From: a virus
Taxonomy: Duplodnaviria; Heunggongvirae; Uroviricota; Caudoviricetes
Length of the DNA stretch: 24,534 bases
Virus record (IMG/VR): IMGVR_UViG_2698536676_000006
Strand: one strand, 5' to 3'
Positions 8,671-22,233 of the stretch are shown one piece after another. Under the pieces are notes generated by a model. It was given only the letters and a program-made list of their open reading frames with translations, ran no database searches and was not told the DNA's origin. Every line of letters begins with the position of its first letter. Position 1 is the first letter of the stretch. The translations under genes were made by a program, and so were the position numbers.

Positions 8671-11428
8671 TGTTTCCACTGGTCAGGCCACCCCGCAGCA
8701 GGTCTGCTTTGCGGTGGGCGCGTTCAGTTGTTTCACTGATTCTCTGTGCGTGCTCTGCGTCGCGGATGGCGCGCAGCATGTCAGAAAGTACGGTAACGGG
8801 TGTTTTCATGGTGTTCTGGTCTTGCTGAAGTGTGGATGCCAGGCGTGCGGCGGCTTCATGGTCTGATGCCCTTAGTTGTTCCAGATAGCCGGCGACCGGG
8901 TTATGGCGGATCTCCGTGCTGCTTACGCCGTGATTACGGCTCAGGCGCTGCCAGAGCTGCGTGATTCGGCTGTCCGGGCGGGTATCCGGTTTGCGTACAA
9001 TTTCAAATCCCTGCGGTGCAATGATGCTGCCGTCAACGTACAGGCTGCCGCCCCGTAACAGGTGCTGCATCTGCTGTTCACCGATATGCAGGCCGAGAGA
9101 TTCGGCAGATTCCCGCCATTCTTTAGCGAGTAATTCGTGGTTATCAGGCAAAGGCCGCTGCTGTTTGCGGCTCTGTGTCCAGCTCTGCATTTCATCACTG
9201 CTGTTTTTTGCCTGTTTGTCACGCAGCGAACGCATCAGCGCCCGGCGTTCGTGCCGTTTCAGTGAGCGCATCCAGTCATCCACATCAACGCCGTCAGGAA
9301 GCTGCGGCCACAGTGCTGGCCGTTCTTCCGGCTGTTCTGTCCCGTTGTTGTCCGTTTCCTGTACACGGGGACAGTTATTGCCACGAGTCCAAGGGGCGGC
9401 AGGGCCGCCCTGAAGGTCAAAACCATTTTCGTGGGCGTTGTCTTCCGGTTCTGGTTTACGTCTTACCAGCTTCCAGTTATCCGGATGCGTGCACACACGG
9501 GAGGATTCCCCGATGAGTGGTGACCAGATCCCGTAAATCTGTACGCTCTGTTCGCCGTAATCGTTCAGCTCATCTGCGAGGTCGTAGGCGGTGCGAATCA
9601 GGTAGTCCTTGCGTGGAACAAGCACGCCACCCTGTTTTTCAATGTAGGTGGCAAAACACCCGGCATCGGCGGCAGCGAGTACCGCATCCATTGCATCATC
9701 TTTCAGCCGTTGCGGGCCTTCCGGATTGCGTGCCATCTGGCTGGCAAGGCGGCGCAGTTCACGCCACACCTGACGGGAGGGGATGCCAAAGAACTGGAAC
9801 TGACGGACCCGGTGAAGGCGCGCCCAGCCGATGGCGCGCTCCACGCTCTCGGCCATTGATTTTCCGGTTTCGTGGTCAACGCGTGGCTTGCCCGTTTTCG
9901 GGTCGATGCCATCCACGGCGCGGCTGTCCAGGTTCTTTCCGATGTAGGTGGCGATGTAGCTGGTTGGTGTGCCTTTTGAGCCGTCGACATACTCCGCCTT
10001 AAAACGCGGAGTTATGTCATCGCCCAGCTCGTGGCGGTCCTCCTGAATGGCAATATCGCAGACGTGGGACACGATGGTTTCAATCTCGTCCGGATGTGCA
10101 AAGACCATCATATGCCAGTGCACAGTGCCGTCATGGTGAGGCTCCACCGTGCGGATGCCATACCAGCGCAGGCCGTCGCGGTTCAGTTTTTTGCGGACCG
10201 CCGCAAAAAACGTGTTAACCAGGTAATCGCTGGAGTCGCGCATGGTGGCCCCGTTCCATTTGGGGTTCGGATGACCGTTCTCCGTTGTTGCGTGGTATTT
10301 TGACGGGCAGGTGACGGTCAGAAACACCGCTCTGTCGCCACGGGCTTCGGCCAGAAGTTCCAGTCCCTTCATGGTGGCCATCATTTCTGCCTTACGGTGA
10401 ACCGGGTTACTTACTCCCGCGTAATACACCGTCTCGAGATCAATCGTGAACCCGTCTTCATTTTCCAGCATGAAACTTTTCAGGAAATCGCGTGTTTTCT
10501 CGCGCTGTGCGCGAAACTCGCTTAACGCGTCCTGGCTCAGATAGGGGGATGTTTTTCTGGAAACCAGACAGGCGGCGCGGAGTTGTTCTTCCCGCCACTC
10601 ACAACGTAACAGCCACAGTTTGCGTTTCCACCATTCCGCACAGGTCAGGCGAAGGATTGCGCCCGGCAGCAGCTCCGTGTCCGGTTCGTTCCTCCGGTCT
10701 TTGTCTGTTGTCAGTGCGTCATAATGTGGAGGCATGGCGTGCAGGTGTAACGCCATGCGGGCCAGCATCTGATAAGCCTTCAGCGTTACATCCATGGTCA
10801 GCTCGCCATCAGTCGCGCCAAAGCCATCGCAGAGTTTTTCGAAGGTGCTGCTGAACATCGCCGCCGTCATGGTGGCCAGCGTCTGTATCTGGTGTTTGTT
10901 GAGCTGCGGCAGGTAAAGCAAATCATCCAGGCGTTCGCGTCCGGCAAGGGAGCGATAACCCGGTGTCAGCCAGCGGTGGTCGGTGCGGTCCAGACGTTCG
11001 AATATTTTGCGCAGGGTTCCGCACGCGTAGCGTTCAGCCTGCCAGCTCTTGTTGCCTTTCCGGCGATCGGCTTCCTGTTTTTTGCGCAGGAAGGAGAGGT
11101 GGCGAATAAGCGGATCGCGCAGATAGGACGGCAGCAGGCGCAGCGAGGCCATGGCTTCATCCACCGCGCCACGTGCCTGTTTTCTGGCGTCTCCTGCCAG
11201 TGTGATGGTTTTGTCCTGTTTTTCCTGTGCGTCCAGGCTTTTATTAATCAGGTTGCCCAGCGGCGTGGCGGAGAACGCCGCATCAGCCATTTCCTGGCGG
11301 CGCTCGTTCTCTGCCCGGTAGGCATCCAGCCAGGAGGAAAGCGCGGATTCAGGAGCGGGGATCCCCGTTCCTTCACGCCCCACTGCGTGGCGCGGTTGTT
11401 GCCAGTCCCTGATGTACTCTGCCGTCAT
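8606..11428 (-). CDS. Replication initiation endonuclease (P2 gpA-like, HUH rolling-circle nickase) with a C-terminal extension
   Basis: 940 aa; ...TVTCPSKYHATTENG...GIRTVEPHHDGTVHWHMMVFAHPDE... matches the P2 gpA catalytic core (HUH motif HWH). About 180 aa longer than P2 gpA (761 aa as I recall); the last codons run through the 8634-8670 hairpin. Confidence 0.85.
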   Translation of the reverse strand: MTAEYIRDWQQPRHAVGREGTGIPAPESALSSWLDAYRAENERRQEMADAAFSATPLGNLINKSLDAQEKQDKTITLAGDARKQARGAVDEAMASLRLLPSYLRDPLIRHLSFLRKKQEADRRKGNKSWQAERYACGTLRKIFERLDRTDHRWLTPGYRSLAGRERLDDLLYLPQLNKHQIQTLATMTAAMFSSTFEKLCDGFGATDGELTMDVTLKAYQMLARMALHLHAMPPHYDALTTDKDRRNEPDTELLPGAILRLTCAEWWKRKLWLLRCEWREEQLRAACLVSRKTSPYLSQDALSEFRAQREKTRDFLKSFMLENEDGFTIDLETVYYAGVSNPVHRKAEMMATMKGLELLAEARGDRAVFLTVTCPSKYHATTENGHPNPKWNGATMRDSSDYLVNTFFAAVRKKLNRDGLRWYGIRTVEPHHDGTVHWHMMVFAHPDEIETIVSHVCDIAIQEDRHELGDDITPRFKAEYVDGSKGTPTSYIATYIGKNLDSRAVDGIDPKTGKPRVDHETGKSMAESVERAIGWARLHRVRQFQFFGIPSRQVWRELRRLASQMARNPEGPQRLKDDAMDAVLAAADAGCFATYIEKQGGVLVPRKDYLIRTAYDLADELNDYGEQSVQIYGIWSPLIGESSRVCTHPDNWKLVRRKPEPEDNAHENGFDLQGGPAAPWTRGNNCPRVQETDNNGTEQPEERPALWPQLPDGVDVDDWMRSLKRHERRALMRSLRDKQAKNSSDEMQSWTQSRKQQRPLPDNHELLAKEWRESAESLGLHIGEQQMQHLLRGGSLYVDGSIIAPQGFEIVRKPDTRPDSRITQLWQRLSRNHGVSSTEIRHNPVAGYLEQLRASDHEAAARLASTLQQDQNTMKTPVTVLSDMLRAIRDAEHAQRISETTERAHRKADLLRGGLTSGNKKQTETGFTNPVNEQKTRRDI

Positions 11429-11434
11429 AGTGAT

Positions 11435-11800
11435 TTACTTCGTCATGCCATTCAGGGTGTCGCGGCAGACTGTAGCCAGCCGCTGAATTTCCAGCACGGT
11501 GTCTTCTGTGTCGGCATGGCGATGTGTGATGCGGATGCTGTCGGCAATCACATCGACGATTGCAGAGGATGGGCGCTGGTAAATGCCAATAACGGACGGG
11601 GTGCCACCTTCAATGCGGTAAAGCCTGTAATTTCCCTCGTGGCTGTCAATCATGTAGCGACCATCAATAACAATCTTTCCGTCAGCGAGCTGCGGTACAG
11701 GCAGGGATTTCAGGTACATGTCATAACGATCACGCACGCGAGCGGCAAGATCTCGTTCTGTGTTGAGCAGGTATTCAAGAAAGTCGTTGGCGAGAATCAT
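11435..11800 (-). CDS. Hypothetical early-operon protein (121 aa) directly upstream of gpA
   Basis: ATG with AGAGGA Shine-Dalgarno; 6-bp gap to the gpA start. Confidence 0.6.
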   Translation of the reverse strand: MILANDFLEYLLNTERDLAARVRDRYDMYLKSLPVPQLADGKIVIDGRYMIDSHEGNYRLYRIEGGTPSVIGIYQRPSSAIVDVIADSIRITHRHADTEDTVLEIQRLATVCRDTLNGMTK

Positions 11801-11872
11801 TGCGGCAATCCTCTTGTTACAGATGTGCGAAGGCCTCCCGCCGCAAGGTGCAGGAAAGGCCCGGAACAGGAA

Positions 11873-12103
11873 TTAATGGAGTTTGTTTTGCTGCTGGATG
11901 AGCTGTTGAAGCTCGTGCAGATCATCCGCCAGATAGCTGAAAACAGAGGCGGAATAAATGTTTGATAGTGCGTGGCTGCGCTCATGCAGCATATTGATGT
12001 GCATGATTTGCGCGACGCGTGATGCGCGGGAAAGTCTGTGGTTGATTTCAGTCTGGATGTGACGACGCTCCGCGATAGTGCGGTGCTGTTTGCGGTCTGC
12101 CAT
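11873..12103 (-). CDS. Hypothetical early-operon protein (76 aa, basic, no Cys)
   Basis: ATG at 12101-12103 with AGAGG upstream; no recognisable domain. Confidence 0.5.
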   Translation of the reverse strand: MADRKQHRTIAERRHIQTEINHRLSRASRVAQIMHINMLHERSHALSNIYSASVFSYLADDLHELQQLIQQQNKLH

Positions 12104-12425
12104 GGTGTGGCCTCTTTGCTCGGTGATAGAAATAACTCACCATCCAGAGTTGAGAATCTCGGGGTGGCGAGACGTACAGGGTTCTCAACACCGGAGAGCA
12201 AAGAATCCGGCCCGACCGAAGTCGGCCCCGTACGCCCCGCCATAATTCTGACGCGAAAAAGACGTGGCAATACAGTGCGCACAAAAAAACCGCTTGCGCG
12301 GTTATGCGCTTTGCTCTGTATCGGGTTGAGAATCCCGGCACCCGTTTTATGAGCTGCAGCGGAAATGTAACCTGACCGATTGAGGCATGGCAAGCGGTTT
12401 TTTTGTGTGTGCATGTTCTGGTTTC
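12104..12425. other. Structured non-coding gap inside the early operon: nested direct and inverted repeats; candidate ncRNA or regulatory/origin-like element
   Basis: GTTGAGAATC[T/C]CGG at about 12150 and 12325, inverted partner GTTCTCAAC at about 12175; CTTTGCTCT / AGAGCAAAG copies; 18-bp inverted repeat cacaaaaaaaccgcttgc at 12281-12298 and 12391-12408; hairpins TCTCG-N6-CGAGA, CCGGA-N9-TCCGG, GGCCCGAC-cgaa-GTCGGCC. Confidence 0.4.
12283..12310 (-). terminator. Candidate rho-independent terminator (AACCGC-gcaa-GCGGTT then TTTTTTTG on the minus strand)
   Basis: Plus strand reads caaaaaaaccgcttgcgcggtt; on the minus strand the hairpin is followed by a 7-T run. Confidence 0.5.
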
Positions 12426-12725
12426 TTACTGGTTCAGAAAAAAATCAAAAACGTTATCGATGCGTTGCAGCAGCTCTTGCTGCATTGCTTCCGGCGTTTC
12501 CGGTTCGCCAGGTGCCCCCAGCGTTGCGCAGAAATCAGCGATTTCATGATGGAGCGTGAGGCGAATGGCAGGAGCCGTGGTTCTGGCGTGCTCCAGCTGA
12601 TCCAGCAGTGCCAGCACAGCAGACGGCGAGAGCATTGCGCGAAATGCCAGTAATTTTTGAGGCGTTGCCATTCGTTGCAGGGCAAATGCCAGTTCGTGTA
12701 GCTTCTGGTGGTTGATGGTGCTCAT
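12426..12725 (-). CDS. Hypothetical protein (99 aa)
   Basis: ATG with GAAGGAAG Shine-Dalgarno; start overlaps the upstream stop (ATGA). Confidence 0.55.
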   Translation of the reverse strand: MSTINHQKLHELAFALQRMATPQKLLAFRAMLSPSAVLALLDQLEHARTTAPAIRLTLHHEIADFCATLGAPGEPETPEAMQQELLQRIDNVFDFFLNQ

Positions 12726-12988
12726 GCTCTGGCTTCCTTCAGTAGCTGGTTAAACATGTGAGTAAGTGGATTGCTACACCCGAACAGCATCGGGTTTACG
12801 TGGTAAGAAGCCTGGCCTCCTGTTTTGCGAGCGCGACCACCTGTGCTGCGGTTTGTTCTGATGACTAAGCCGCCGCGCCAAAGTCGGCGTAACTCAGCAT
12901 TAATGGCTGTGGTTGGGGTATTCAGTGCTGCGGCGATCTCTCCGCCGCTACACCCCGGATGAGTAGCGATGTAGTCCAGAATGGTCAT
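12722..12988 (-). CDS. Putative winged-helix DNA-binding protein (88 aa)
   Basis: MTILDYIATHPGCSGGEIAAALNTPTTAINAELRRLWRGGLVIR looks like an HTH / winged-helix; AGGAG Shine-Dalgarno; ATGA overlap with the upstream gene. Confidence 0.6.
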   Translation of the reverse strand: MTILDYIATHPGCSGGEIAAALNTPTTAINAELRRLWRGGLVIRTNRSTGGRARKTGGQASYHVNPMLFGCSNPLTHMFNQLLKEARA

Positions 12989-13242: not shown

Positions 13243-13629
13243 TCAATGAATACAGCTTGAGAGCGTTCTATCAGGCGGAGATTTGTCAGAAGCTCTGACT
13301 CTTTTGTGTGGTAAGGCGTTATCAGGTATTTGCCGTGCAGTTCGGCAATAATGGTGTATTGCAGCATCATTGCTGAACCAAGAATATAAAATGCAGCGTC
13401 CAATGCTGGACGGATTCATGGCTGCAACTGTTGACTGTGTTTTAAGAGTGTCGATTTCTTTGCTCTGTTCCTCAATAACTTTGGCTGCTTCAGAGGCGGC
13501 TATTGCGATGGTCAGTGCGTAAAGCGCTGCCATATGTTGATTATCTTTCTGGGCTGCCCTGGACAGCTTGTCTTGCTCTGCTGACACTATTTTTAATGTA
13601 TTGATAATATTTTTTTCTTTTGCGTTCAT
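13243..13629 (-). CDS. Hypothetical protein (128 aa); N-terminal half coiled-coil-like, C-terminal half possibly frameshifted
   Basis: Strong start (GGAG then ATG at 13627-13629); a 63-aa ORF in another frame (13212-13403, TTG start) overlaps the 3' half. Confidence 0.45.
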   Translation of the reverse strand: MNAKEKNIINTLKIVSAEQDKLSRAAQKDNQHMAALYALTIAIAASEAAKVIEEQSKEIDTLKTQSTVAAMNPSSIGRCILYSWFSNDAAIHHYCRTARQIPDNALPHKRVRASDKSPPDRTLSSCIH

Positions 13630-13721
13630 TTTATATCTCCGTTATTTACGTGTGCGAATACCTCCGCGAATGCGGATAGTTTTCAGGTTTTCGGGTTTAA
13701 TCTGGTGTTTTGTTTAAGCTG

Positions 13722-13835
13722 TTATTTGTCAGTAAAAAAGCGTTCAATCTTTTTTACTGAATGAATAATTCGCATAATCCCAATGGCGCAGGCCACCGAA
13801 ATAATCAGAACAAGCCATGAGATAAATATACTCAT
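13722..13835 (-). CDS. Small hydrophobic peptide (37 aa, MSIFISWLVLIISVACAIGIMRIIHSVKKIERFFTDK), predicted single transmembrane helix
   Basis: Not in the ORF track (under 60 aa). Hand-translated: ATG at 13833-13835 overlaps the stop of the 80-aa gene upstream (ATGA coupling); a 20-residue hydrophobic stretch is followed by a basic tail. Confidence 0.4.
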   Translation of the reverse strand: MSIFISWLVLIISVACAIGIMRIIHSVKKIERFFTDK

Positions 13836-14074
13836 GCGATATTCCCCAGCTTATACGGTTCAATGTGTTCCCCGCATTCTGCGGCACAGATCAGCTCGGA
13901 AAGTTCGTTAAGTGCATCCAGATCATCAGCGTAAAAAGCAACGTCATACAAACTCCGGATTGCCCTGGTCAATGAGTCACGGGCTGCATGTTCAGCATGA
14001 GCGCCTGATGCACTTAAGCGAAAATAAAATCGTTCAAGTGCTTTGTTAATGAGAGTTTTATATTCTTTGCCCAT
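13832..14074 (-). CDS. Hypothetical protein (80 aa)
   Basis: ATG with AAGGG Shine-Dalgarno. Confidence 0.55.
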   Translation of the reverse strand: MGKEYKTLINKALERFYFRLSASGAHAEHAARDSLTRAIRSLYDVAFYADDLDALNELSELICAAECGEHIEPYKLGNIA

Positions 14075-14085
14075 CGCAACGCCCT

Positions 14086-14364
14086 TTAATCTGCTTTCTG
14101 AATTTCAGCTTCTGAATCCATACAAATAATTTCGATATAGGGTTCATCGCCATTAACCTGACGTGCCTTTTCAGCTTCGCTAATGATTTCTCGTACGGTC
14201 TGGTACGGAAGCTCCACAGTCAGGCGCGTACCGTTCAGATAAACGTAAGTAGTTGCGTTTTTTTCGGATGGAACAACTCCGTCAATGGCTGATGCGCGTA
14301 ATAACAGTTCACCGCGAAAATCAATAAAACGGATAAATACACCTTGTGCATGCTCTTTGGTCAT
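14086..14364 (-). CDS. Hypothetical protein (92 aa from the ATG at 14362-14364)
   Basis: AGGTG Shine-Dalgarno 5 nt upstream of that ATG; the tool's 14424 start is TTG and overlaps the upstream gene. Confidence 0.55.
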   Translation of the reverse strand: MTKEHAQGVFIRFIDFRGELLLRASAIDGVVPSEKNATTYVYLNGTRLTVELPYQTVREIISEAEKARQVNGDEPYIEIICMDSEAEIQKAD

Positions 14365-14374
14365 AAAGCACCTG

Positions 14375-14725
14375 TTATAAATCAGCCTGTTTAATAAAAC
14401 TTTGCCCGCGAAGCAGACGATCAACCGTGCGAAGTGCTTCGTATAATGTGAAATCCTGCCCGAAGTGATTGTCGCCGCAGTTCAATGCAAAAATGCGGTT
14501 TCCGGTAAACGGATTGCGTGGGCATTTGTGGATCACGATTCCAGCTTTCTCAATCAGCCAGGCATGCTCGCCGATTTGTTTTACAGCGTGGCCATCCGGT
14601 GTTGCGTGCGTCTCGTTCAGGTTATAGCGACTGTTACTACGTGATGCACTGGTAGCGACGTGGTGTACATGGCGTTCTACGCTATTACGAAATTTGGAGT
14701 ATGGATTATTAGCGTTTTTTTTCAT
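14375..14725 (-). CDS. Hypothetical protein (116 aa, His/Cys-containing)
   Basis: ORF with ATG start in operon context. Confidence 0.55.
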   Translation of the reverse strand: MKKNANNPYSKFRNSVERHVHHVATSASRSNSRYNLNETHATPDGHAVKQIGEHAWLIEKAGIVIHKCPRNPFTGNRIFALNCGDNHFGQDFTLYEALRTVDRLLRGQSFIKQADL

Positions 14726-14746
14726 GATGGTGCTCTGTTCATTGTT

Positions 14747-14950
14747 TTAGCTGTTAGCCAAAGCGTCTTTTAACATCGCCACAAGGTTTACTTCAGGCTT
14801 TTCCATTTTGGCGCGTTTGGGGCGGATAATAATTCGACCGTCAGCCAACATCTTTTTGCATGTATTAAGAGGGATACCTGTTATCTCTGCATATTTCTGC
14901 AGGGATACATAGGGGGCATTCACATTGATATTGATGGTTATACCTGACAT
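14747..14950 (-). CDS. Cox/Apl-like excisionase-type HTH regulator
   Basis: 67 aa; ...APYVSLQKYAEITGIPLNTCKKMLADGRI... resembles the P2 Cox HTH region as I recall it; correct position in the early operon. Confidence 0.6.
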   Translation of the reverse strand: MSGITININVNAPYVSLQKYAEITGIPLNTCKKMLADGRIIIRPKRAKMEKPEVNLVAMLKDALANS

Positions 14951-14966
14951 CCCACTAGCCTCCTGA

Positions 14967-15173
14967 TCAGGAAGATTTGTTTTGTTCTTTCTGGGTTAGC
15001 TCTAGGCCGCGAAGGAAGATCATGCGCGCCATGTTAGAGGATGAGCGTTGTTCTTTAGCTGCCATTTCATCAATGACGGCTCGCTCCTCGAGGGACAGCC
15101 GAAGTGCCAGTCTTGGACCTGTGGCGGTGTTACGCGGAATGCGTGATCTGGTATCGTGAAGAACTTGTTTCAT
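14967..15173 (-). CDS. Putative ribbon-helix-helix regulator, first gene of the early leftward operon
   Basis: 68 aa; LALRLSLEERAVIDEMAAKEQRSSSNMARMIFLRGL fits the RHH beta-strand/helix pattern; no clear Shine-Dalgarno. Confidence 0.5.
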   Translation of the reverse strand: MKQVLHDTRSRIPRNTATGPRLALRLSLEERAVIDEMAAKEQRSSSNMARMIFLRGLELTQKEQNKSS

Positions 15174-15248
15174 AGTGGTATATTGTGATCATCTAATAGC
15201 TCGTGAAATCATTTGGTATCAAAAAAGATACCTGTCAAGGTTTTTTGT
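15174..15248. promoter_or_regulatory. Immunity-switch intergenic region between divergent early operon and repressor; 18-bp palindrome GGTATC-aaaaaa-GATACC (15215-15232) as candidate operator
   Basis: Perfect palindrome read directly; a TTGACA hexamer on the minus strand (15233-15238) abuts it. Confidence 0.5.
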
Positions 15249-15653
15249 ATGAAAAATGATATTGGTCAGCGGTTGCGTGAGGAAAGGGAAAGATTGGGAC
15301 TTAGTCAAGTTGCCATGAGCGACATTGGTGGAGTCAAAAAGCTAACTCAGCTTAGATATGAGAAAGGAGATAGCTTTCCTGATGCTGCGTATTTGGCAGC
15401 GCTGTCTCGTTTTGGCCTTGATGTTCAGTATGTTGTGTTGGGAATTCACTCACCTGAAACTTATAACGATGATGAGCAGGAGTTGATTACTCGCTTTCGA
15501 GCAGCTTCGTTAGATGTGAAAAACGCGGTGATTGGGGCTTTAAAAGGTGCGATCAGTGAAAAGGAAACTCAGCCATCAGGACGTGAGTTAAATATTTCTG
15601 GTGGTAATAACCGTATCGCTGGTCGTGACTATAACGAAACTAAGGGTAGGTGA
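15249..15653 (+). CDS. CI/C-type immunity repressor (XRE-family HTH)
   Basis: MKNDIGQRLREERERLGLSQVAMSDIGGVKKLTQLRYEKGDSFPDAAYLAALSRFGLDV is a canonical XRE HTH; ATG at 15249 preferred over the tool's TTG at 15213; integrase-proximal, divergent from the early operon. Confidence 0.75.
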   Translation: MKNDIGQRLREERERLGLSQVAMSDIGGVKKLTQLRYEKGDSFPDAAYLAALSRFGLDVQYVVLGIHSPETYNDDEQELITRFRAASLDVKNAVIGALKGAISEKETQPSGRELNISGGNNRIAGRDYNETKGR

Positions 15654-15668
15654 TAGTAGGGAGGTGAC

Positions 15669-16319
15669 ATGGCCGTCAACTCAAACGGTTCAAACAATCG
15701 CGTTGCTGGGCGTGATTTTCACGAAAAGAATATTCAGATAGAGCGATATGATGGTTCTCATACCGTCAATATCGCAATCCCTTCGAATAATGATGATGAC
15801 GATCGCCCTTTGCTTAAGGCTCAGCGTAAGGAGCTAAATAGCTTGGTTGCTGCTATTGCAGAAGCTAGCAATACTGAAGCGTTTATTATTTGGCAAAAAG
15901 TACATGCGGAGATTGGTGTAGCTGGTATTGATGATATGACAGTAAATCAATATAAAACAGCGGAGAGTTTTCTGCATGCAATGCTTGAGCGATGTAAAGA
16001 TCATGATGCCTGTAAGGCTCTTGTAAGTTTATTACTACGTAACAGTGAAGACTGTGGACTTCGACAAAAACTTCTGCGGTATTGCCATATCAATTTCGGT
16101 ACAGGACGTTTAAACGATCTTACTCGTTCTCAGTTACAGTCTGCATTGTCGTGGTTAGAGCAACAATCGGCATCAAGCCACACAGAGAGTTCGACCTTAC
16201 CAGAAGTCCGACTTCGTGCTTCAGAATTAATCCGACTTTATCCAAAAGAAATAATATTCTTTATCTGCGTAGGGGTTTTGGTAGGCGGTGTCATTTCTAG
16301 GGCGTTTTTTAATTTGTAA
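15669..16319 (+). CDS. Cargo gene: 216-aa protein with C-terminal transmembrane anchor (candidate superinfection-exclusion / abortive-infection protein)
   Basis: GGGAGG Shine-Dalgarno; C-terminal IIFFICVGVLVGGVISRAFF hydrophobic helix; N-terminal SNGSNNRVAGRDFHE echoes the repressor C-terminus ISGGNNRIAGRDYNE; lies where P2 has repressor and integrase adjacent. Confidence 0.65.
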   Translation: MAVNSNGSNNRVAGRDFHEKNIQIERYDGSHTVNIAIPSNNDDDDRPLLKAQRKELNSLVAAIAEASNTEAFIIWQKVHAEIGVAGIDDMTVNQYKTAESFLHAMLERCKDHDACKALVSLLLRNSEDCGLRQKLLRYCHINFGTGRLNDLTRSQLQSALSWLEQQSASSHTESSTLPEVRLRASELIRLYPKEIIFFICVGVLVGGVISRAFFNL

Positions 16320-16348
16320 TCTTACTTGAGCTAAATTGAGGTAATGAT

Positions 16349-16696
16349 ATGAAAGTAAAAAAGGTTCAACTATTAGTTACTTTTTTATCTATGTTTTCTT
16401 TTTCCGCCGTCGCAATGCCTTTTAAAACTATTGAACGTGAGAGTTTCAATGGGGTATGGCCATTTAATACTGATGAGGTTCAATTACAGTGTCTTGATGG
16501 TAATCCTTATGTGATGAATTTTGACGATAATAAGTTATATGCACTTACAGGTTTGGCTCGAATAAAAGGTAAAACATTTGGTGCGTTACCGTTAGATAAC
16601 AATAATCCATTTTGGCTAGATAATGATGCCGCCCCAGGGTTAAAAAAGAGCCTGGGGGATGTCACTAAGGCTGCATTTGATTTATGTGATAAGTAA
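16349..16696 (+). CDS. Cargo gene: small secreted protein with signal peptide and two Cys
   Basis: MKVKKVQLLVTFLSMFSFSAVA-MP signal-peptide-like N-terminus; GAGG Shine-Dalgarno; Cys in QCLDG and DLCDK. Possibly DUF2511-like; unverified. Confidence 0.65.
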   Translation: MKVKKVQLLVTFLSMFSFSAVAMPFKTIERESFNGVWPFNTDEVQLQCLDGNPYVMNFDDNKLYALTGLARIKGKTFGALPLDNNNPFWLDNDAAPGLKKSLGDVTKAAFDLCDK

Positions 16697-16701
16697 CTAA
16701 A

Positions 16702-17703
16702 ATGTCGGTTCGTAAGATTCCATCAGGTAAATGGCTTTGCGAATGTTATCCCTACGGGGCATCGGGAAAACGCATTCGTAAACAGTTTGCGACAAAAAGT
16801 GAGGCGCTCTCTTATGAGCGCCGTTTAATGAATAGTAGAGTTGGAGACGAGTTTCAAGATGGTTCTGGTCCTCGTCTTTCTGAGTTGATTGCTCGTTGGT
16901 TTGAGATGTACGGTAAAACCTTGTCCTCTGGTGCAGAGCGCAAAGTCAAACTTGAGGCGATTTGTTCCAGGCTGGGAGATCCATTTGCTTCTCAGTTTGA
17001 CAAAAATATGTTTGCCACTTATCGGGAAAGAAGGTTATCAGGAGAGTGGAATCCCAAGGGGAAGAAAAAACTTAGTGAAGCAACCGTTAATCGCGAGCAG
17101 TCATATCTACATGCTGTTTTTGCCGAACTGAAGCGCCTTGGGGAGTGGTCTGGTGAAAACCCCCTGACTGGTATTCGCAAGTTTCGTGAGGAAGAAAAGG
17201 AACTGGCGTTTCTGTATGTAGATGAGATTGAACGCCTTCTGATTGCGTGTGATGAGTCACGGAATAAAGATTTGGGGGTTGTTGTCCGTATTGGGCTTGC
17301 GACTGGTGCTCGGTGGAGTGAAGCAGAAGGGTTAAAGCAATCTCAAGTACTGCCCGGTCGAATCACATTTGTTAAAACTAAAGGAAAGAAGAACCGCACT
17401 GTACCGATTTCACCTCAATTGCAGGCTATGCTTCCCAAAAAACGAGGAGCGCTATTTTCACCATGTTATGAGGCTTTTGACGCTGCAATTAAGAGAGCGA
17501 AGATCGAGCTTCCTGATGGGCAATTAACTCATGTGCTACGTCACACGTTTGCCAGTCATTTTATGATGCGGGGCGGAAATATTCTTGTGTTGCAAAAAAT
17601 ACTGGGGCATAGCGATATAAAAATGACTATGCGTTATGCGCATTTTGCTCCAGGTCATTTAGAGGCTGCTGTTGAATTGAACCCTTTTGACAATAGAGGG
17701 TAA
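16702..17703 (+). CDS. int: P2-type tyrosine integrase
   Basis: 333 aa; TGARWSEAEGLK, ITFVKTKGKKNRTVPIS, HVLRHTFASHFMMRGGNILVLQKILGH, YAHFAPGHL align with P2 Int as I recall it. Confidence 0.9.
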   Translation: MSVRKIPSGKWLCECYPYGASGKRIRKQFATKSEALSYERRLMNSRVGDEFQDGSGPRLSELIARWFEMYGKTLSSGAERKVKLEAICSRLGDPFASQFDKNMFATYRERRLSGEWNPKGKKKLSEATVNREQSYLHAVFAELKRLGEWSGENPLTGIRKFREEEKELAFLYVDEIERLLIACDESRNKDLGVVVRIGLATGARWSEAEGLKQSQVLPGRITFVKTKGKKNRTVPISPQLQAMLPKKRGALFSPCYEAFDAAIKRAKIELPDGQLTHVLRHTFASHFMMRGGNILVLQKILGHSDIKMTMRYAHFAPGHLEAAVELNPFDNRG

Positions 17704-17964: not shown

Positions 17965-18846
17965 TCACGGGGTGCAATGAGCCGCAATCTCCAGCCTGGC
18001 AATGCCGAATCGAACGTGTCGCCTCCAGCATAGAGAACCAGGCCGCTTTGCCTGTTTTCCGGTACTCTTCCGGGAAGGGTGGCCTGCTGAGCAAGTTGTA
18101 ATGCTCTGGCCGCCCTTAGTACAAAGTTGCTTAATTCGTGCAATCACCTCATCTCTGTACTTCTGGTGTCCGCGCATAGCCCTTGGATGGGCAATTCTGA
18201 AACAGATTGTATTACCTGTTTTGAACTCCCACAGCTTCCCCGGAATGACTGAAGAAGTCTCATAACCGCCCAGCTCAGTAAGCACCTGTTTAATGATGTA
18301 GTCTGTTCTCCGGGCTCCGGATGCAAAGATCATGAAATCAGGCTCAAGGTGTTTAATTTGTACCGCCAGCAGCTTCAGCGAGGCTAATATGACTTCCTGC
18401 ACTTCATTTTGAGGGCGATTGAGAGGGGTCAGTCCGTCGTAATCCCACGCCAGTAGATTGGCATACACGATAGCCTGAGGAGGAATATTAAGCTCCCGGG
18501 CCAGCCTGAAATGATATTGCGTGAAGCGGCTACGTGATTTGAGGTTGGTGGTGCCATCATTTTGTACCGGAAGATGTTTCCTGTAACGATCTACAGCTTC
18601 TTCAACCACCTGCCCGATGGTGACGTCAGGCATAAGTCCCAACACCCGTGATATCGTATTCTTACCATTCAGCGTATTCCAGCCTGCGGTTTCACGTCTA
18701 ACCAGCATGATTTTTACCGGTGAATGCCAGTATTCTTCAAACGGCACGGGTAAAAAGACGCCTGAGTATTTATCTTCATTCAGGTTAAATGACTGGGCGT
18801 CAACTTCCTGTAATATCCGTTTGTACGCGTCTAATAGCCTTTCCAT
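17965..18846 (-). CDS. Hypothetical protein (293 aa) between the tRNA fragment and the P4-type integrase; C-terminal 50 aa low-complexity, possibly non-native
   Basis: Long ORF, no family recognised; Cys/Arg/Ser-rich tail. Confidence 0.55.
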   Translation of the reverse strand: MERLLDAYKRILQEVDAQSFNLNEDKYSGVFLPVPFEEYWHSPVKIMLVRRETAGWNTLNGKNTISRVLGLMPDVTIGQVVEEAVDRYRKHLPVQNDGTTNLKSRSRFTQYHFRLARELNIPPQAIVYANLLAWDYDGLTPLNRPQNEVQEVILASLKLLAVQIKHLEPDFMIFASGARRTDYIIKQVLTELGGYETSSVIPGKLWEFKTGNTICFRIAHPRAMRGHQKYRDEVIARIKQLCTKGGQSITTCSAGHPSRKSTGKQAKRPGSLCWRRHVRFGIARLEIAAHCTP

Positions 18847-18926
18847 TCTTCAATCCTGCCCCGTAATAAAAACACCTTCAGATATATATTATTTTCATGA
18901 TATCAATCAGATATATGAGGATAAAT

Positions 18927-20126
18927 ATGCAAAAATCCTTCCGATTCACCAATTCATCCATCAAAGCCCTTCCGGCAAACACAGATACCCGATCTACAGA
19001 GCTTGAGGTATCCGATACTGAGGTCATTGGCCTCAAATGCCTCTCAGGTCGAACGGGTAACAAACGTTTCCTCCTGCGCTACACATTCCACGGTACCAAA
19101 AAAAGTATCAGTATTGGCAGATTCCCTGAAATTGATGTGGGGACAGCCCGTCAGATAGCTCGTCGTCACAAGGAGGCGATTGCACTGGGAAATGACCCTA
19201 AGGCAGAACGCGATAATTATCGTGCTATGCCAACGCTTAGTGAGTTTTTTCACCAGACCTATGTTCCGTTCATCAAACGCCATAAAAAGTCCTGGGATAA
19301 GGATGTTCAGCGTTTCACGCAATACATTGAACCTTGTCTGGGGAAGATACGTTACTGTGACCTTCGGGCCCGGGAAATCCAGCAGGTGCTTTTCGACATG
19401 CTTGAGGGTCGTATTCACGGGCAGCAATATGCGCCGTCTACCTGTAACAGAGCCCTTGCTATTCTGAAAACGATGGGGCGTTATGCGTTGCGACAGGATG
19501 TGCTGGAAAAGAATGAAGCCGATAAGATCCCTTTACTGAAAGAGAATAATCAGCGGACGCGCTTTTTTGATGCTGATGAGATCAGGCGCATTCTTGACGC
19601 TGCTACCCAATATCCCAACAAAGCTGCCGGGGGATTGATAGCCATGTTGTTGTTAACCGGTACACGCAAAACAGAAATGCTTAATGTCAGGCATGAACAT
19701 ATCGACCGGGCCAATCGTACTCTGTTCATTCCTTATACAAAAAATGGTCGCAGTCGGACGGTATATCTAAGCGATGCCGCATTATCGATTATTGATGCTA
19801 TCCCACGAGTTGGCAGTAATCCGTATCTGTTCGCCATTAAGGATAATGGCAAACCGATATCGGAACCCCGATGGGCATATGAAAAAATACTGGCACAGTG
19901 CGGTATAGACAAGAATGAAGTCTGTTTTCACACCACACGTCATTCTGTTGCCTCTTTACTGGTTTCGAGTGGTCAATTCAGCCTGTATGACGTTAAAGCC
20001 CAACTGGCGCATGCCAGTATTCAGAGTACAGAACGTTACGCGAAATTAACACCGGAACGTATGCGTCAGACAGGGCAGGGAGTGACTGACCTGCTTCTGA
20101 ATACTGCGGCTACGAAGCAGATGTGA
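18927..20126 (+). CDS. int: P4-family tyrosine integrase (genomic-island type)
   Basis: N-terminal arm-binding domain (...GLKCLSGRTGNKRFLLRYTFHGTKKSISIGRFPEIDVGTARQIARRHKEAIALGNDPKA) and catalytic region (...TRHSVASLL...ERYAKL); ATG at 18927 with GAGG Shine-Dalgarno preferred over tool start 18897. Confidence 0.85.
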   Translation: MQKSFRFTNSSIKALPANTDTRSTELEVSDTEVIGLKCLSGRTGNKRFLLRYTFHGTKKSISIGRFPEIDVGTARQIARRHKEAIALGNDPKAERDNYRAMPTLSEFFHQTYVPFIKRHKKSWDKDVQRFTQYIEPCLGKIRYCDLRAREIQQVLFDMLEGRIHGQQYAPSTCNRALAILKTMGRYALRQDVLEKNEADKIPLLKENNQRTRFFDADEIRRILDAATQYPNKAAGGLIAMLLLTGTRKTEMLNVRHEHIDRANRTLFIPYTKNGRSRTVYLSDAALSIIDAIPRVGSNPYLFAIKDNGKPISEPRWAYEKILAQCGIDKNEVCFHTTRHSVASLLVSSGQFSLYDVKAQLAHASIQSTERYAKLTPERMRQTGQGVTDLLLNTAATKQM

Positions 20127-20162
20127 CTACTTTTTAGCAAACTATAAATATGGAGAATGAGG

Positions 20163-20399
20163 ATGCATTTAAAATGCCCACAGTGTGGCAGTTGTAATAC
20201 ATTGATAAGTTCAGCAGGAAAACTGCCATCGATAACCGATAATAAACACTCTGGGTATATTAGCCTGGAGTTTTTACCTGAAATACTGAAAGAAATTATT
20301 AAGGCTATTAAAAAACTATTTGGATTCCTTGAACAGTGTGAAAGGAATAATGCTCCAGTGCTTATCTGTATGGACTGTGGATATTATGAAAGAATTTAA
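20163..20399 (+). CDS. Small zinc-ribbon protein (CPQCGSC ... CMDCGYYE)
   Basis: Two CxxC pairs about 60 residues apart; GGAG Shine-Dalgarno; has its own terminator. Confidence 0.6.
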   Translation: MHLKCPQCGSCNTLISSAGKLPSITDNKHSGYISLEFLPEILKEIIKAIKKLFGFLEQCERNNAPVLICMDCGYYERI

Positions 20400-20446
20400 A
20401 TAGAAAACCAATAACTGTAAATAATAGTTATGCGGATGTATAAAAA

Positions 20447-20476
20447 CCTCGATACGTTAATCGTATCGGGTTTTTT
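20447..20476 (+). terminator. Rho-independent terminator (CGATACG-ttaat-CGTATCG plus TTTTTT)
   Basis: Read directly from sequence. Confidence 0.6.
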
Positions 20477-20494
20477 GTTTATGAGGATTATTCA

Positions 20495-20866
20495 ATGAAA
20501 TTTGTCTCGAACTGGCAAGACCTGCCGTCGCTCCTTCTTCCGGAGTCAGTAATGAGTCTGTTGAAAACAGAGCTGGTACTCCCATTTGAAGATGAATACT
20601 CTGCAATGAGTTTCTGGGATGAAGTCGGGGTGACATTAATATATGTCGAGCCCGATGATGTACCTGAAGATATTAAAGCGCAGGTATTAAATGTGATTCA
20701 TCAGTTAATTGCAAATCCAGAATTTGTAGTCCGTCTGACAGATGACTATTACCTGATGCTTTCTGTTACGGAAGATAACGGGAACGGTATTTATCTGTTA
20801 TTTCACCCCGATTGCCCTCTGAAGGGTATTGATTTATTAATTTCTATGGCCGAATCACGCTATTAA
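20495..20866 (+). CDS. Operon gene 1: acidic 123-aa hypothetical protein
   Basis: GAGGA Shine-Dalgarno; Asp/Glu-rich; AT-rich codon usage. Confidence 0.65.
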   Translation: MKFVSNWQDLPSLLLPESVMSLLKTELVLPFEDEYSAMSFWDEVGVTLIYVEPDDVPEDIKAQVLNVIHQLIANPEFVVRLTDDYYLMLSVTEDNGNGIYLLFHPDCPLKGIDLLISMAESRY

Positions 20867-20891
20867 ACACAAGCAAAACCAGGAACGCAAA

Positions 20892-21425
20892 ATGAGTAAA
20901 TCAAAATTAGTTAAAAATAATGTTGAGTCAGTTTCGAAGGAGATTAAAAATGAGGCAGAGGTTATTCATGAAAATCTCAGTGCAGATGAACAAACATTAT
21001 CTGATGTAAAAGACTATCAGTTGCTCATTGAAACAGGCCAGGCAGAAAAAATCAGTCCTAAGGCAAGTGGTATGCTGACATGGCAACTGGCGATATCAGA
21101 GGTGGATAATGAACTTTATCTTCGTCTGGTGGCAAATGGCTGTGGAGGGTTGTTCTCTAAGGACTGGATCTCACTTTCAAAGATTGCAACTGTTCTGGAA
21201 ACACAACCTGCTACCGGCTTCTCATCCGGAGTATTCAGGCCGCTATTCAAAGGGGCAAGCGCCAACAATGCAGGTTTTCTGGCTGCTGTTTTACGCTCCC
21301 CGGATATATGTCTGCTGGAGGCACATCCAGAGAAGTTATTTACTCATGTATTATACCCGGACTGGAGGGAGCGGTTGAATAAACTTAATACGATCAGTAG
21401 CCAGGAAAAGATTACAGAGGATTAA
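20892..21425 (+). CDS. Operon gene 2: 177-aa hypothetical protein
   Basis: AGGAA Shine-Dalgarno; 25-bp gap from gene 1. Confidence 0.65.
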   Translation: MSKSKLVKNNVESVSKEIKNEAEVIHENLSADEQTLSDVKDYQLLIETGQAEKISPKASGMLTWQLAISEVDNELYLRLVANGCGGLFSKDWISLSKIATVLETQPATGFSSGVFRPLFKGASANNAGFLAAVLRSPDICLLEAHPEKLFTHVLYPDWRERLNKLNTISSQEKITED

Positions 21426-21497
21426 TTTATTTCCTGCACTGTTATACAACCAGAAATCACCACACACCACTATTTACTTTCTAAAGGAAAATTTATT

Positions 21498-21932
21498 ATG
21501 CAAACCCAATATGCCTTAAAACAGGCAGGATTAACTCTGCCTGTTACTAAAGAATTTCAGCAGCATATTACTACTCTTCTGGCAAATCAGGTTTTACAAA
21601 AAATAACTGAGGCAGTGGTTATTAATTTCCGTGATCCGGACTACAGTGCAGAATCCGGGGGCTTTCATCCCGTTGAAATACGGTTTATCCGTAAGAATAA
21701 TGAATGGTATTTTGATTATGTCACAGATTTTAGTTATATGGGGCGTGTCTACCCTGAGCTGGAAAAAGAAATTGATTTTTGCTGGTCGGGGAATTATGTC
21801 TTCCATTATCTGATTGGGGATATTTCACTGGCAGCAGAGAGGAATGAACTCTGGTCCCTGTGGGAGCGTAATTTTATGGAGTATCTCTCTATGGGGATTT
21901 ACCGGGTAACGGTAACTGTGGAAAGTTGTTGA
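21498..21932 (+). CDS. Operon gene 3: 144-aa hypothetical protein (Trp/Tyr/Phe-rich)
   Basis: AAAGGA Shine-Dalgarno; 72-bp gap with no terminator before it. Confidence 0.65.
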   Translation: MQTQYALKQAGLTLPVTKEFQQHITTLLANQVLQKITEAVVINFRDPDYSAESGGFHPVEIRFIRKNNEWYFDYVTDFSYMGRVYPELEKEIDFCWSGNYVFHYLIGDISLAAERNELWSLWERNFMEYLSMGIYRVTVTVESC

Positions 21933-22045
21933 CCCGTTATGAACAGGAAGAAAGCGGGCGGCTTTGTAATCTACTGCATGTGGCGTGCATCACAGCATGG
22001 AGATGATGTCTCTTTTTCCTAGCTGTTCGCATAAACAAGTGCAGA

Positions 22046-22076
22046 CACGGGGGATCTCAGATCCCTCGTGGTTTTT
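22046..22076 (+). terminator. Rho-independent terminator closing the three-gene operon (CACGGGGGATCT / AGATCCCTCGTG then GTTTTTG)
   Basis: Read directly from sequence. Confidence 0.55.
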
Positions 22077-22233
22077 GCCCCCTATGGAGCATTCTCCTGT
22101 AGCAGGGTGATAACGGTTAATCCATTACCCCAACTACAGTATTACACCGGTAATAAATGTTCATGAATACAGTTAGTTATGTGGGTTTTGAGGTGGGCTA
22201 TGTCATCGTTGACGATAACTGAAGGTTTTACAG

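Follow-up and report, generated by a model that had tools for sequence, protein, structure and literature searches.

The genes that encode the immunity repressor and the integrase are neighbors in P2 (C and int, 115 bp apart) and in 186, where cI abuts int (reference genomes compared), as the preliminary description of this DNA had assumed for P2. In the P2-like prophage on the 24,534-nucleotide stretch of DNA analyzed here (the window), a degraded remnant from E. coli, two further genes, orf216 and orf115, interrupt this adjacency, which raises the question of whether they are accessory cargo or belong to the immunity module itself. The answer appears to differ between the two: orf216 would be a partner of the repressor, coupled to it through a shared motif, and orf115 would be variable cargo. 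For this joint picture, the balance tips narrowly in favor.

Both open reading frames were confirmed at the positions first reported, each with an ATG start (Table 1), and both share the orientation of the repressor. The four plus-strand genes are tightly packed in the order repressor, orf216, orf115, int, with gaps of 15, 29, and 5 nt, and Shine-Dalgarno sequences precede the start codons of orf216 (GGGAGGTGAC) and orf115 (GAGGTAATGAT). A terminator scan found no plus-strand terminator-like site from the repressor to the end of int. Given the shared orientation and the absence of an intervening terminator-like site, the two genes are probably members of the lysogenic operon, as P2 Pc and 186 pL would suggest by analogy, and all four genes probably form a single operon of this kind. 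Between this operon and the divergent early operon, the switch region contains a perfect inverted repeat, GGTATC-N6-GATACC (15215-15232), that is a candidate operator. A consensus promoter scan of the switch region returned no promoter, so the promoter assignment is putative. An alternative TTG start for the repressor is possible at 15213.

Table 1. Features of the repressor-integrase region and the adjoining early operon (positions in the window).
Feature	Position	Strand	Evidence
Cox-like excisionase/repressor, second gene of divergent early operon	14747..14950	-	phrog_575 E 1.2e-27; RefSeq 'DNA-binding protein'
Arc-like (ribbon-helix-helix) early repressor, first gene of divergent early operon	14967..15173	-	phrog_3431 E 9.8e-29, full length; annotated in phage 520873
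Switch region between divergent operons	15174..15248	.	read from sequence
Xre-type HTH immunity repressor, 134 aa	15249..15653 (PGAP start)	+	HTH_31/HTH_3, phrog_8; WP_000786769.1
Repressor C-terminal tail motif LNISGGNNRIAGRDYNE (aa 114-130)	15588..15638	+	resembles orf216 head
orf216, tail-anchored Flk_N-family protein, 216 aa	15669..16319	+	precomputed Pfam PF27202 Flk_N, phrog_5825 E 4e-103; WP_000290349.1
orf216 N-terminal head motif VNSNGSNNRVAGRDFHE (aa 3-19)	15675..15725	+	pLDDT <50 in monomer model
Flk_N helical domain (aa 39-168)	15783..16172	+	hhalign to true Flk; AF2 pLDDT 78-90
C-terminal transmembrane tail anchor (aa 192-214)	16242..16310	+	hydropathy, AF2 helix
orf115, periplasmic YebY/DUF2511 paralog, 115 aa, signal peptide aa 1-22	16349..16696	+	PF10709, phrog_2950 E 8.7e-40
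P2-type tyrosine integrase, last operon gene	16702..17703	+	Int_N 5.2e-32, Phage_integrase 2.5e-22, phrog_1 1.4e-76

The region is common in E. coli, with matches in 599 of 5426 complete genomes; of these, 516 extend over 80% or more of the 3.1 kb, and identity reaches at least 99% in 480. In the GenBank phage collection, the sole record with either gene is the prophage-derived phage 520873. With carriers in GenBank limited to this phage, isolated phages of the P2, 186, and P88 types offer no functional lead.

The second of the two genes, orf115, encodes a secreted protein of a recognizable family. The signal peptide noted in the preliminary description is of the classical type, with an MKVKK start, a cleavage-type AVA before M (VQLLVTFLSMFSFSAVA followed by MP), and no lipobox Cys. 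The remainder matches PF10709 with 28.4 bits, above the gathering threshold of 21 (aa 28-113 against profile positions 2-87 of 87), and aligns over aa 34-113 with YebY of known structure (PDB 7n0j; phmmer E 0.003). Similar to YebY of the E. coli AZY operon and to MlbQ, a lantibiotic self-resistance protein (both DUF2511), it has a signal peptide, Trp37, and the Cys48-Cys113 pair, the three residues standing at positions described for YebY as a conserved Trp and two strictly conserved Cys that form a disulfide (PMC8689200). Unlike YebY, orf115 is part of a prophage operon, where its neighbors are the Flk_N gene and the integrase rather than yobA and yebZ or other homologs of CopC/CopD, and nothing links it to copper. 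Its GC content (0.356) is the lowest in the operon.

The slot that orf115 occupies is variable. Depending on the prophage, the gene upstream of int encodes a YebY/DUF2511 protein, a 288-aa protein, DUF8087, a ∼292-aa protein, a 242-aa membrane protein, a Zn-ribbon protein paired with a tail-anchored one, or a 137-aa secreted protein, or the slot is empty. Among 80 IMG/VR loci, it holds YebY in 43, the 288-aa protein in 11, DUF8087 in nine, the 242-aa protein in one, and other genes in 12; in one there is no ORF of at least 50 aa, and in three int lies outside the locus. At least seven alternatives thus alternate between conserved flanks, as in a moron hotspot, and by this turnover orf115 is an ordinary swap-in moron, that is, cargo of the lysogenic-conversion or exclusion type. 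By analogy, its likeliest role is to benefit the lysogen at the level of the envelope; exclusion of incoming phages and binding of an envelope-active compound, as in the lantibiotic-immunity homolog MlbQ, are candidates. The same logic is seen in the cI-int hotspot described in K139-like, P2-related Vibrio phages (PMC9122126), where variable genes are expressed in the lysogen; K139 glo is described as a gene for a periplasmic protein and as the immunity gene of the K139 family (PMC4870250). That hotspot belongs to another host clade (Vibrionaceae) and has no sequence relation to the genes here, and here variation is limited to the slot that follows the Flk_N gene. The hotspots that the same study describes for E. 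coli P2 lie elsewhere in the genome (PMC9122126). YebY homologs beside a recombinase and a CI repressor were already noted in Enterobacteriaceae (PMC8689200). This part of the result is an ordinary one, and adds a YebY-family periplasmic protein to the cargo of repressor-integrase hotspots.

The case of orf216 turns on the repressor. In its AF2 model, an HTH domain (aa 5-64) is followed by two helices (74-103) and a disordered tail (104-134), and the tail motif is present in 50 of 120 repressor homologs. The tail is 65-85% identical between immunity types whose HTH parts share only 31%. The window's repressor is also weakly similar to the RstR family (E 4e-6, below cut-off).

The same G/N-rich motif, 17-25 aa long across its variants, recurs at the N-terminus of orf216 (here termed the head), where S5, G7, N10, R11, G14, D16, and E19 are invariant in 19 homologs. 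Both segments have pLDDT below 50 in AF2 monomer models of the two proteins, and the motif contains 15-17% G and 12% N, with 9.6% K in the tails. Local BLOSUM62 alignments were compared with composition-preserving shuffles of the heads: cognate tail/head scores of 35-79, against ∼20 ± 4 for shuffled heads, are significant in all 36 unique pairs (z 3.7-15, with at most 7 of 1000 shuffles reaching the cognate score). The window's pair scores 62, against 21.4 ± 4.2 for shuffles, none of which reaches 62 in 1000. Tails also discriminate among heads: P2-type tails reach 62 against P2-type heads but 16-24 against others; for FHGxVGQ tails the scores are 62 (own heads) and 18 (P2 heads), and for the tail of locus L030 they are 50 (own head) and 16-38 (other heads). 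At least six pair-matched variants are distinguished (NRVAGRD, FHGxVGQxxAGxIxN, GQFxxxxIIN, PxGDxxGRD, GNVxxGxVT, and QIAGxxIY), and the motif is kept and co-varies across Enterobacterales, Gilliamella, and marine and other Mu-like phages. We read this pairing from sequence, and it suggests that head and tail bind each other physically.

Likeness and co-variation would, however, be predicted just as well by mimicry, with the head standing in for the tail toward a third party, or by binding of both head and tail to the Flk_N domain. In the former case, orf216 would be a membrane-bound decoy, its head titrating a factor directed against the repressor tail, and would stabilize lysogeny or set the threshold for induction; candidates for this factor are a protease, an adaptor, or an anti-repressor made by the prophage itself, by a superinfecting phage, or by a P4-like satellite. 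Co-expression from one operon at a fixed ratio would suit such a titration buffer, and a gene for a 'Derepression' protein (PF25738) occurs elsewhere in the prophages of relatives. Anti-repressors of this sort have precedents in P4 epsilon and 186 Tum, both of which work by binding repressors of the P2 family, although none directed at the tail is known for the repressor class of the window. Heads are also found where the neighboring repressor is tail-less or an HTH neighbor is absent, a distribution that fits a self-assembling head better, and we consider a decoy unlikely.

Gene order bears on whether orf216 is cargo at all. A Flk_N gene lies directly 3' of an HTH repressor in 13 of 13 individually inspected P2-like prophage loci from at least 10 enterobacterial genera; P2-like prophages with this order occur in Klebsiella, Serratia, E. 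coli, Rosenbergiella, Mixta, and Izhakiella, and further ones in Enterobacter, Erwinia, Hafnia, Arsenophonus, and S. microhaemolytica. The order recurs among Mu-like phages, in 30 viral contigs and in additional loci. Conversely, a P2-like prophage with a tail-less repressor lacks the Flk_N gene, and when two tailed repressors were taken as starting points, each proved to be followed by a gene with a matching head. In related loci, the position of orf216 is never swapped while the following slot varies, and the alternation of unrelated genes between conserved flanks that characterizes a cargo hotspot is not seen for it. Some loci depart from this pattern: L059-type repressors carry a helical C-domain in place of a beta tail, while their partners keep a head-like segment; P0201 is without an HTH neighbor; and the partner in L071 is without a TM segment.

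On this comparative evidence, orf216 is a conserved companion of the tailed-repressor class in nearly every P2-like or Mu-like locus examined, and is core to one immunity-module subtype, though missing from P2 and 186. The preliminary description, which took both genes for cargo and allowed that matches to conserved core genes of P2-like phages would overturn this, therefore stands for orf115 and fails for orf216, whose core status is itself partial given its absence from P2 and 186. The broader version of that claim, in which the two genes are independent cargo and orf216 is a stand-alone membrane protein for superinfection exclusion or lysogenic conversion with no tie to the repressor, draws on its membrane anchor and place inside the lysogenic operon, on a weak match to phrog_6521 'moron... 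membrane protein' (E 8.7e-10, aa 5-110), on the frequency of envelope proteins among the genes of this interval, and on the hotspot known from the same interval in K139-like phages (PMC9122126). It is nonetheless improbable: orf216 stays constant while the next gene swaps, follows repressors in two unrelated phage types, and is missing where the repressor has no tail, and an independent exclusion protein would have no reason to copy the C-terminus of a repressor with which its head co-varies.

The remainder of orf216 relates it to Flk (Fluke/RflH), the regulator of the flagellar secretion switch in Salmonella and E. coli, which lies in the cytoplasm and is attached to the membrane by one C-terminal anchor (PMC13344023). 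The same design is predicted for orf216, which has no N-terminal signal sequence and a single strongly hydrophobic stretch. As the preliminary description had it, this stretch is C-terminal (Kyte-Doolittle 19-mer 2.36 at 195-213); two residues follow the AF2 helix, and G202 and G206 are invariant in the homolog alignment. The phage group aligns with the N-domain of true Flk (hhalign 98.8%, E 8.7e-17, 129 columns; orf216 aa 39-168 against Flk aa 20-148). The PF27202 assignment was precomputed on P0001, a cluster representative 98% identical to orf216, and on nearly all homologs as well. Against the NCBIfam Flk equivalog NF007987, orf216 scores 58.1 bits (E 8.6e-16), short of the cut-off of 353, and matches with aa 37-166 only (profile positions 20-149 of 339). 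There is also a marginal, partial match to phrog_245 'anti-repressor Ant' (E 0.0042, aa 49-108). Weak Pfam matches to zf-P11 and ELYS fell under the cut-offs and were dismissed. A Foldseek search of the PDB with the orf216 model gave nothing significant (best E 0.66), a PDB sequence search gave no match, and neither orf216 nor orf115 had a match in PADLOC-DB 2.0 at E up to 0.1.

This homology could be taken to mean that orf216 is a mimic of Flk that targets the flagellar type III export gate (FlhA) and alters the motility or flagellin export of the lysogen, with the head motif incidental. The alignment and the shared plan of cytoplasmic domain and tail anchor are what such a role would predict, and some databases name the homologs 'flagella biosynthesis regulator'. 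The two proteins differ in most other respects: identity is only 22%, the NCBIfam score is far from the cut-off, and Flk is a chromosomal protein of ∼333 aa with a long linker, a second Flk_N-like stretch (two matching stretches in many true Flk, against one unit here), and no N-terminal G/N-rich head, while orf216 is phage-borne and repressor-adjacent. A flagellar role would also leave the strict repressor linkage and co-variation unexplained, and is very unlikely. Lastly, that the head/tail likeness is a chance product of low-complexity ends or a functionless relic of local duplication or an ancient gene split is barely credible and largely refuted by the shuffle scores, the variant cross-scores, and the frame comparison: both segments are indeed G/N-rich, and in the window the repressor and orf216 ORFs share a frame with only TGA TAG TAG GGA GGT GAC between them, but shuffles of the same composition almost never match the observed scores, the motif copies differ at synonymous DNA positions, the motif is maintained and co-varies across diverse hosts and phages, and the frame relation differs in seven of 14 loci, so that the shared frame, and with it fission or read-through of the two genes, is put down to chance.

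We thus favor orf216 as a partner of the repressor. It would be a cytoplasm-facing, tail-anchored protein of the inner membrane within the immunity switch; its head would pair directly with the repressor tail by homotypic beta-strand co-assembly, and capture of repressor by membrane-held orf216 would set the level of free repressor. Because orf216 belongs to the repressor's own, constitutive lysogenic operon, in which a constitutive anti-repressor would be self-defeating, the model needs an extra signal. Its likeliest form would be a conditional, signal-dependent anti-repressor or a sensor feeding the lysis-lysogeny switch; the anti-repressor direction is offered tentatively, as a possibility we rate short of even. 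The window's own module may no longer control anything, its prophage being degraded. The pairing of orf216 with the repressor, as far as sequence comparison can indicate, points to an undescribed mode of phage repressor control, and a literature search for orf216 proteins, Flk_N, and PF27202 found no description of repressor pairing.

Two known systems are close to this proposal. RstC of the CTX-phi element RS1 aggregates RstR. In VP882, Qtip sequesters the cI repressor at the cell poles (10.1101/2019.12.16.877910). As proposed here for orf216, a small phage protein binds a cognate repressor, relocalizes or aggregates it, and lifts repression. Qtip and RstC, however, are expressed only upon a signal, from separate promoters, and contact the DNA-binding domain, whereas orf216 is encoded within the repressor operon, is membrane-anchored, and would make a tail-to-head contact.

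The arrangement of the motif also resembles that of amyloid signaling pairs (the fungal HET-S/NWD2, BASS, and Bab/Agp), in which a C-terminal motif matches the N-terminus of the adjacent gene product and co-varies with it (10.1101/2024.11.07.622273; 10.1101/2020.01.06.895854); in Bab/Agp, the BASS11 motif occupies the C- and N-termini of the products of adjacent genes in E. coli prophage hotspots (10.1101/2024.11.07.622273). Similar to amyloid signaling motifs, the segments here are disordered in monomer models, and they may in part share the enrichment in G, N, Q, V, and I. The partners differ: in the amyloid pairs, the protein with the N-terminal motif is an NLR/STAND or TPR sensor and that with the C-terminal motif a membrane-disrupting cell-death effector, whereas here these places are taken by a small tail-anchored helical protein and a DNA-binding repressor. 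BASS motifs are ∼25 aa long, rich in G/N/Q/V/I, and depleted in K/P/L; the Mu-like variant of ∼25 aa (FHGAVGQAVAGNITNKSGVTFNVG) fits this description, whereas the P2-type motif, as in the window, spans just 17-19 aa and is charged, with many R, D, E, and K residues. That the shared motif is a true amyloid-like templating signaling motif is rated as rather unlikely. If it were, an envelope or membrane cue would cluster the tail-anchored Flk_N protein, its heads would nucleate a beta assembly, and this assembly would recruit and convert repressor tails, so that the repressor would leave the DNA and the prophage would be induced.

Most known prophage induction proceeds via DNA damage. If the head-tail pairing is true, a membrane-tethered partner from the repressor's own operon would represent a different control logic, and a large class of temperate phages, including P2-like prophages of E. 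coli, Klebsiella, Serratia, Yersinia, and Salmonella and Mu-like phages of several other hosts, would have an unstudied membrane-anchored input to the immunity repressor. Matched-motif signaling between adjacent genes, hitherto a matter of cell-death effectors, would be extended to a transcription factor. Were the amyloid reading also true, this would be the first prion-like signaling to control a transcription factor and a phage lysis-lysogeny switch, would give about one-tenth of E. coli genomes, as well as many prophages of Klebsiella and Serratia and many Mu-like ones, an SOS-independent route to induction, and would suggest that chromosomal Flk is either the descendant or the ancestor of a phage regulatory protein. 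The pairing would also place the Flk_N domain, itself poorly understood, in a second biological context, which may help to explain how Flk acts. One relative of orf216, P0214, has an internal TM segment and a Cys-containing periplasmic domain, which give it a sensor-like appearance.

Between the HTH repressor and the P2-type integrase lie two open reading frames, encoding proteins of 216 aa (orf216) and 115 aa (orf115), exactly as in the preliminary description. Hydropathy, the AF2 model, and homology back both the C-terminal membrane anchor assigned there to orf216 and orf115's signal peptide. The intergenic gaps from repressor through orf216 and orf115 to int are 15, 29, and 5 nt, the ORFs are preceded by good Shine-Dalgarno sequences, and a plus-strand scan from the repressor to the end of int revealed no terminator-like site. 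Arc-like and Cox-like early genes are divergent from this operon. Repressor and int make up the lysogenic operon in both P2 and 186, with 115 bp between C and int in P2 and cI abutting int in 186; orf216 and orf115 thus interrupt an ancestral adjacency. Judging from the gene organisation, lysogens probably transcribe both ORFs together with the repressor.

Features of the lysogeny region and the adjoining island (window coordinates)
Feature	Coordinates	Strand	Remark
Arc-like repressor	14967-15173	-	68 aa
PGAP hypothetical ORF	15022-15159	+	45 aa
Inverted repeat	15215-15232		GGTATC-AAAAAA-GATACC
HTH repressor	15249-15653	+	
In-frame stops and spacer to orf216	15651-15668		stops TGA TAG TAG
orf216	15669-16319	+	216 aa
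orf115	16349-16696	+	115 aa
Integrase, P2-type	16702-17703	+	
Island with second integrase	17965-24325		
Second integrase	18897-20126		409 aa; directly downstream of P2-type int

The inverted repeat is perfect and falls within the 75-bp gap separating the repressor gene from the divergent Arc-like gene; TGGTAT recurs at ~15176 and ~15214, and these elements are candidate operators. No sigma-70 site was returned by a consensus promoter scan of the same gap. The Arc-like protein has a full-length PHROG match (E 1e-28); RefSeq/PGAP instead annotates a hypothetical ORF on the opposite strand, likely an annotation mistake that hundreds of genomes share. The repressor gene ends in three consecutive in-frame stops, and orf216 starts 15 nt on in the same frame. 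Because this frame relation is not kept in related loci, it is probably coincidental, and an origin of the two genes by same-frame fission is ruled out.

The preliminary description had proposed both ORFs as cargo genes, which holds for orf115, since the content of its slot (between the Flk_N-family gene and int) varies among related prophages, but not for orf216, which is constant after the repressor. In every P2-like locus inspected (at least 10 enterobacterial genera), an orf216 homologue directly follows the repressor, and the next gene varies; orf216 is not cargo. Distant Flk_N members also follow the repressor in Mu-like transposable phages, and the gene is absent from a P2-like prophage with a tail-less repressor. 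The orf216 family (phrog_5825, E 4e-103; precomputed Pfam PF27202, "Flk_N") is small and well conserved: a search of 1.84 billion proteins gave only 134 cluster representatives at E <= 1e-3. A helical domain modelled with confidence at residues 39-168 (AF2 pLDDT 78-90) shares homology with the N-domain of Flk, a flagellar regulator (hhalign 98.8%, E 8.7e-17), but orf216 is not itself Flk, scoring 58 bits against an equivalog cut-off of 353. The phage-type profile often aligns to two separate stretches of a true Flk protein, which suggests that the Flk_N unit is tandemly duplicated in Flk.

The link between orf216 and the repressor extends to a shared G/N-rich motif, carried by the C-terminal tail of the repressor (...LNISGGNNRIAGRDYNETKGR) and the N-terminal head of orf216 (MAVNSNGSNNRVAGRDFHEKN), both low-confidence and unstructured in monomer models. 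When the last 40 aa of the repressor were aligned locally with the first 40 aa of the partner, all 36 unique pairs scored 35-79, compared with ~20 +/- 4 for shuffled heads (z 3.7-15; observed score reached by <=7/1000 shuffles). The motif differs between phage groups and changes on both partners together; in the class matrix, a P2-type tail scores 62 with a P2-type head but 16-24 with the other heads. The shuffle scores and this class matrix rule out a chance origin of the likeness. Within the P2-like group, tails are 65-85% identical even where the HTH parts, of different immunities, are only 31% identical. Two tailed repressors were picked by their tails alone, and the downstream gene has a matching head in both.

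Tail and head motifs by phage group or locus
Group or locus	Tail	Head
P2-like	INVSGQGNRVAGRDYNENKK	VNSTGEQNRVAGRDFNEN
Mu-like viral contigs	TFHGAVGQAVAGNITNKSGVTFNVG	DFHGEVGQAAGGDINNYGVNISLV
L030	QIFNGDISGQFAGNQIINN	QEFNGTAQGQFSSRDIINI
L061	APIGDIFGRDLV	GPVGDVAGRDII
L062	HGDVLGNVIKGNVTMG	NGEVGNVVSGDVTIH
L069 (Gilliamella)	GEGQIAGGNIYTT	AEQIAGRDIYNIT

At the genomic level, amyloid signalling pairs are defined by just such matching, co-varying motifs at the C-terminus of one gene product and the N-terminus of the next; they were found first in fungi and then in the bacterial BASS families (10.1101/2020.01.06.895854); one such pair, the E. coli prophage-borne Bab/Agp, was recently shown to work (10.1101/2024.11.07.622273). 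The partners here are new, a DNA-binding repressor bearing the C-terminal motif and a small, membrane-anchored relative of Flk bearing the N-terminal one. On the most economical reading, direct head-tail pairing would tie repressor molecules to the membrane protein orf216. A decoy, with the head imitating the tail so as to titrate a factor directed at the tail, would account for the similarity equally well, but we consider it unlikely. That orf216 is an independent exclusion protein agrees with its gene location but leaves the head/tail co-variation unexplained, and is improbable. That orf216 acts as Flk does, on the flagellar export gate, agrees with the Flk_N homology but does not account for the repressor linkage, and is very improbable.

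If head and tail do pair, a constitutive inhibitor makes little sense, because repressor and orf216 come from one operon; conditional capture is therefore favoured, with orf216 possibly acting as a sensor or anti-repressor in response to some signal. The conditional anti-repressor direction is put forward tentatively. Repressor capture has a precedent in RstC, which induces aggregation of RstR. Qtip, which relocalises cI of VP882, provides another (10.1101/2019.12.16.877910). The repressor-orf216 part is best seen as a fresh form of two known kinds, anti-repressor modules and matched-motif gene pairs, with a modest chance that it is something more unusual; the cargo part, orf115, is already familiar in kind. 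A literature search of incomplete coverage found no mention of the orf216 or orf115 proteins, PF27202, or a repressor/Flk-like pairing, and neither protein matched PADLOC defence models.

The pairing rule is strong but not universal, because several loci deviate. In one Mu-like subgroup (L059-type; 1884-3043), the 155-aa repressor ends in a helical domain, not a G/N-rich beta tail, and the Flk_N protein carries an additional amphipathic helix at its N-terminus, ahead of the head-like segment; a different pairing mode may operate there. The homologue P0201 has no HTH neighbour, and the partner in locus L071 is short, without a TM segment. P0214, from a Mu-like prophage (L061 3001-3858), combines the head motif and a Flk_N-like start with a long coiled coil and an internal TM segment; its C-terminal extracytoplasmic domain spans ~60 aa and contains two Cys. 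It fits a bitopic, sensor-like version of the partner, with the periplasmic domain after the TM segment fitting a signalling role.

orf115 passes the Pfam threshold for DUF2511/YebY (28.4 vs 21 bits), matches phrog_2950 end to end, aligns over residues 34-113 to the crystal-structure protein YebY (7n0j), and carries Trp37, Cys48, and Cys113; it is a DUF2511 member, yet not the YebY of the AZY operon. yebY homologues beside a recombinase and CI repressor have already been noticed in Enterobacteriaceae (PMC8689200). Elsewhere the slot holds a 288-292 aa protein (Klebsiella, Enterobacter), DUF8087 (other E. coli, Izhakiella), a 242-aa membrane protein (Mixta, Hafnia), a ~292-aa protein, a Zn-ribbon and tail-anchored pair, a 137-aa secreted protein, or nothing at all. 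Across 80 IMG/VR loci it contained YebY (43), the 288-aa protein (11), DUF8087 (9), the 242-aa protein (1), other proteins (12), or none (1), with int outside the locus in 3, counts that are not population frequencies because near-identical E. coli copies dominate the sample. A cI-int hotspot is described in K139-like P2-related Vibrio phages (PMC9122126), and the K139 gene glo is described both as encoding a periplasmic protein and as the immunity gene of the K139 family (PMC4870250). By analogy, our guess is that orf115 could act in exclusion or bind an envelope-active molecule.

The Zn-ribbon protein (117 aa) and tail-anchored coiled-coil protein (140-163 aa) lie between repressor and int in L063 (4357-5132) and L133 (4147-4919); the pair accompanies tail-less repressors in some prophages and is cargo behind an Flk_N gene in others, and is another uncharacterised two-gene module. 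In Mu-like phages (L017, L030, L069), a lipoprotein-like ORF (signal peptide then Cys) is usually next after the Flk_N gene, and in L028 a TIR_2-domain protein follows it (3990-4862), which suggests that this position is a cargo or defence slot too.

Several E. coli chromosomes match the 3.1 kb around orf216 and orf115 at 100% identity. Of 5426 complete E. coli genomes, 599 contain this stretch (516 over at least 80% of its length), and it is 97.9% identical to prophage-derived Escherichia phage 520873 (Peduoviridae, Xuanwuvirus). By RefSeq annotation (L001) it lies in a decayed P2-like prophage with an IS1 insertion, and truncated pseudogenes in the remnant (window 1-12800) include baseplate V, major capsid, and large terminase. 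IS1 adjoins the tail-fibre genes, and one early-region gene is frameshifted. Despite this decay, the repressor-orf216-orf115-int operon is intact and near-identical in ~480 genomes. The GC content of the lysogeny module (0.36-0.45) is far below that of replication gene A (0.58), and there is a sharp step between the lysogeny and early genes (13500-17700; 0.36-0.45) and the replication and structural genes (4000-12500; 0.51-0.62), with the lowest value in orf115 (0.356); this step fits an immunity module that is mosaic and exchangeable. The island with the second integrase also holds three small ORFs, including a DUF2787 protein, as well as a DUF726 protein and an HTH regulator; beyond it, the matching genome has IS1, a type I R-M system, and yecA. 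The P2-type int is followed immediately by yecA in other strains (L012), and the arrangement resembles islands inserted in tandem at a single attachment site.
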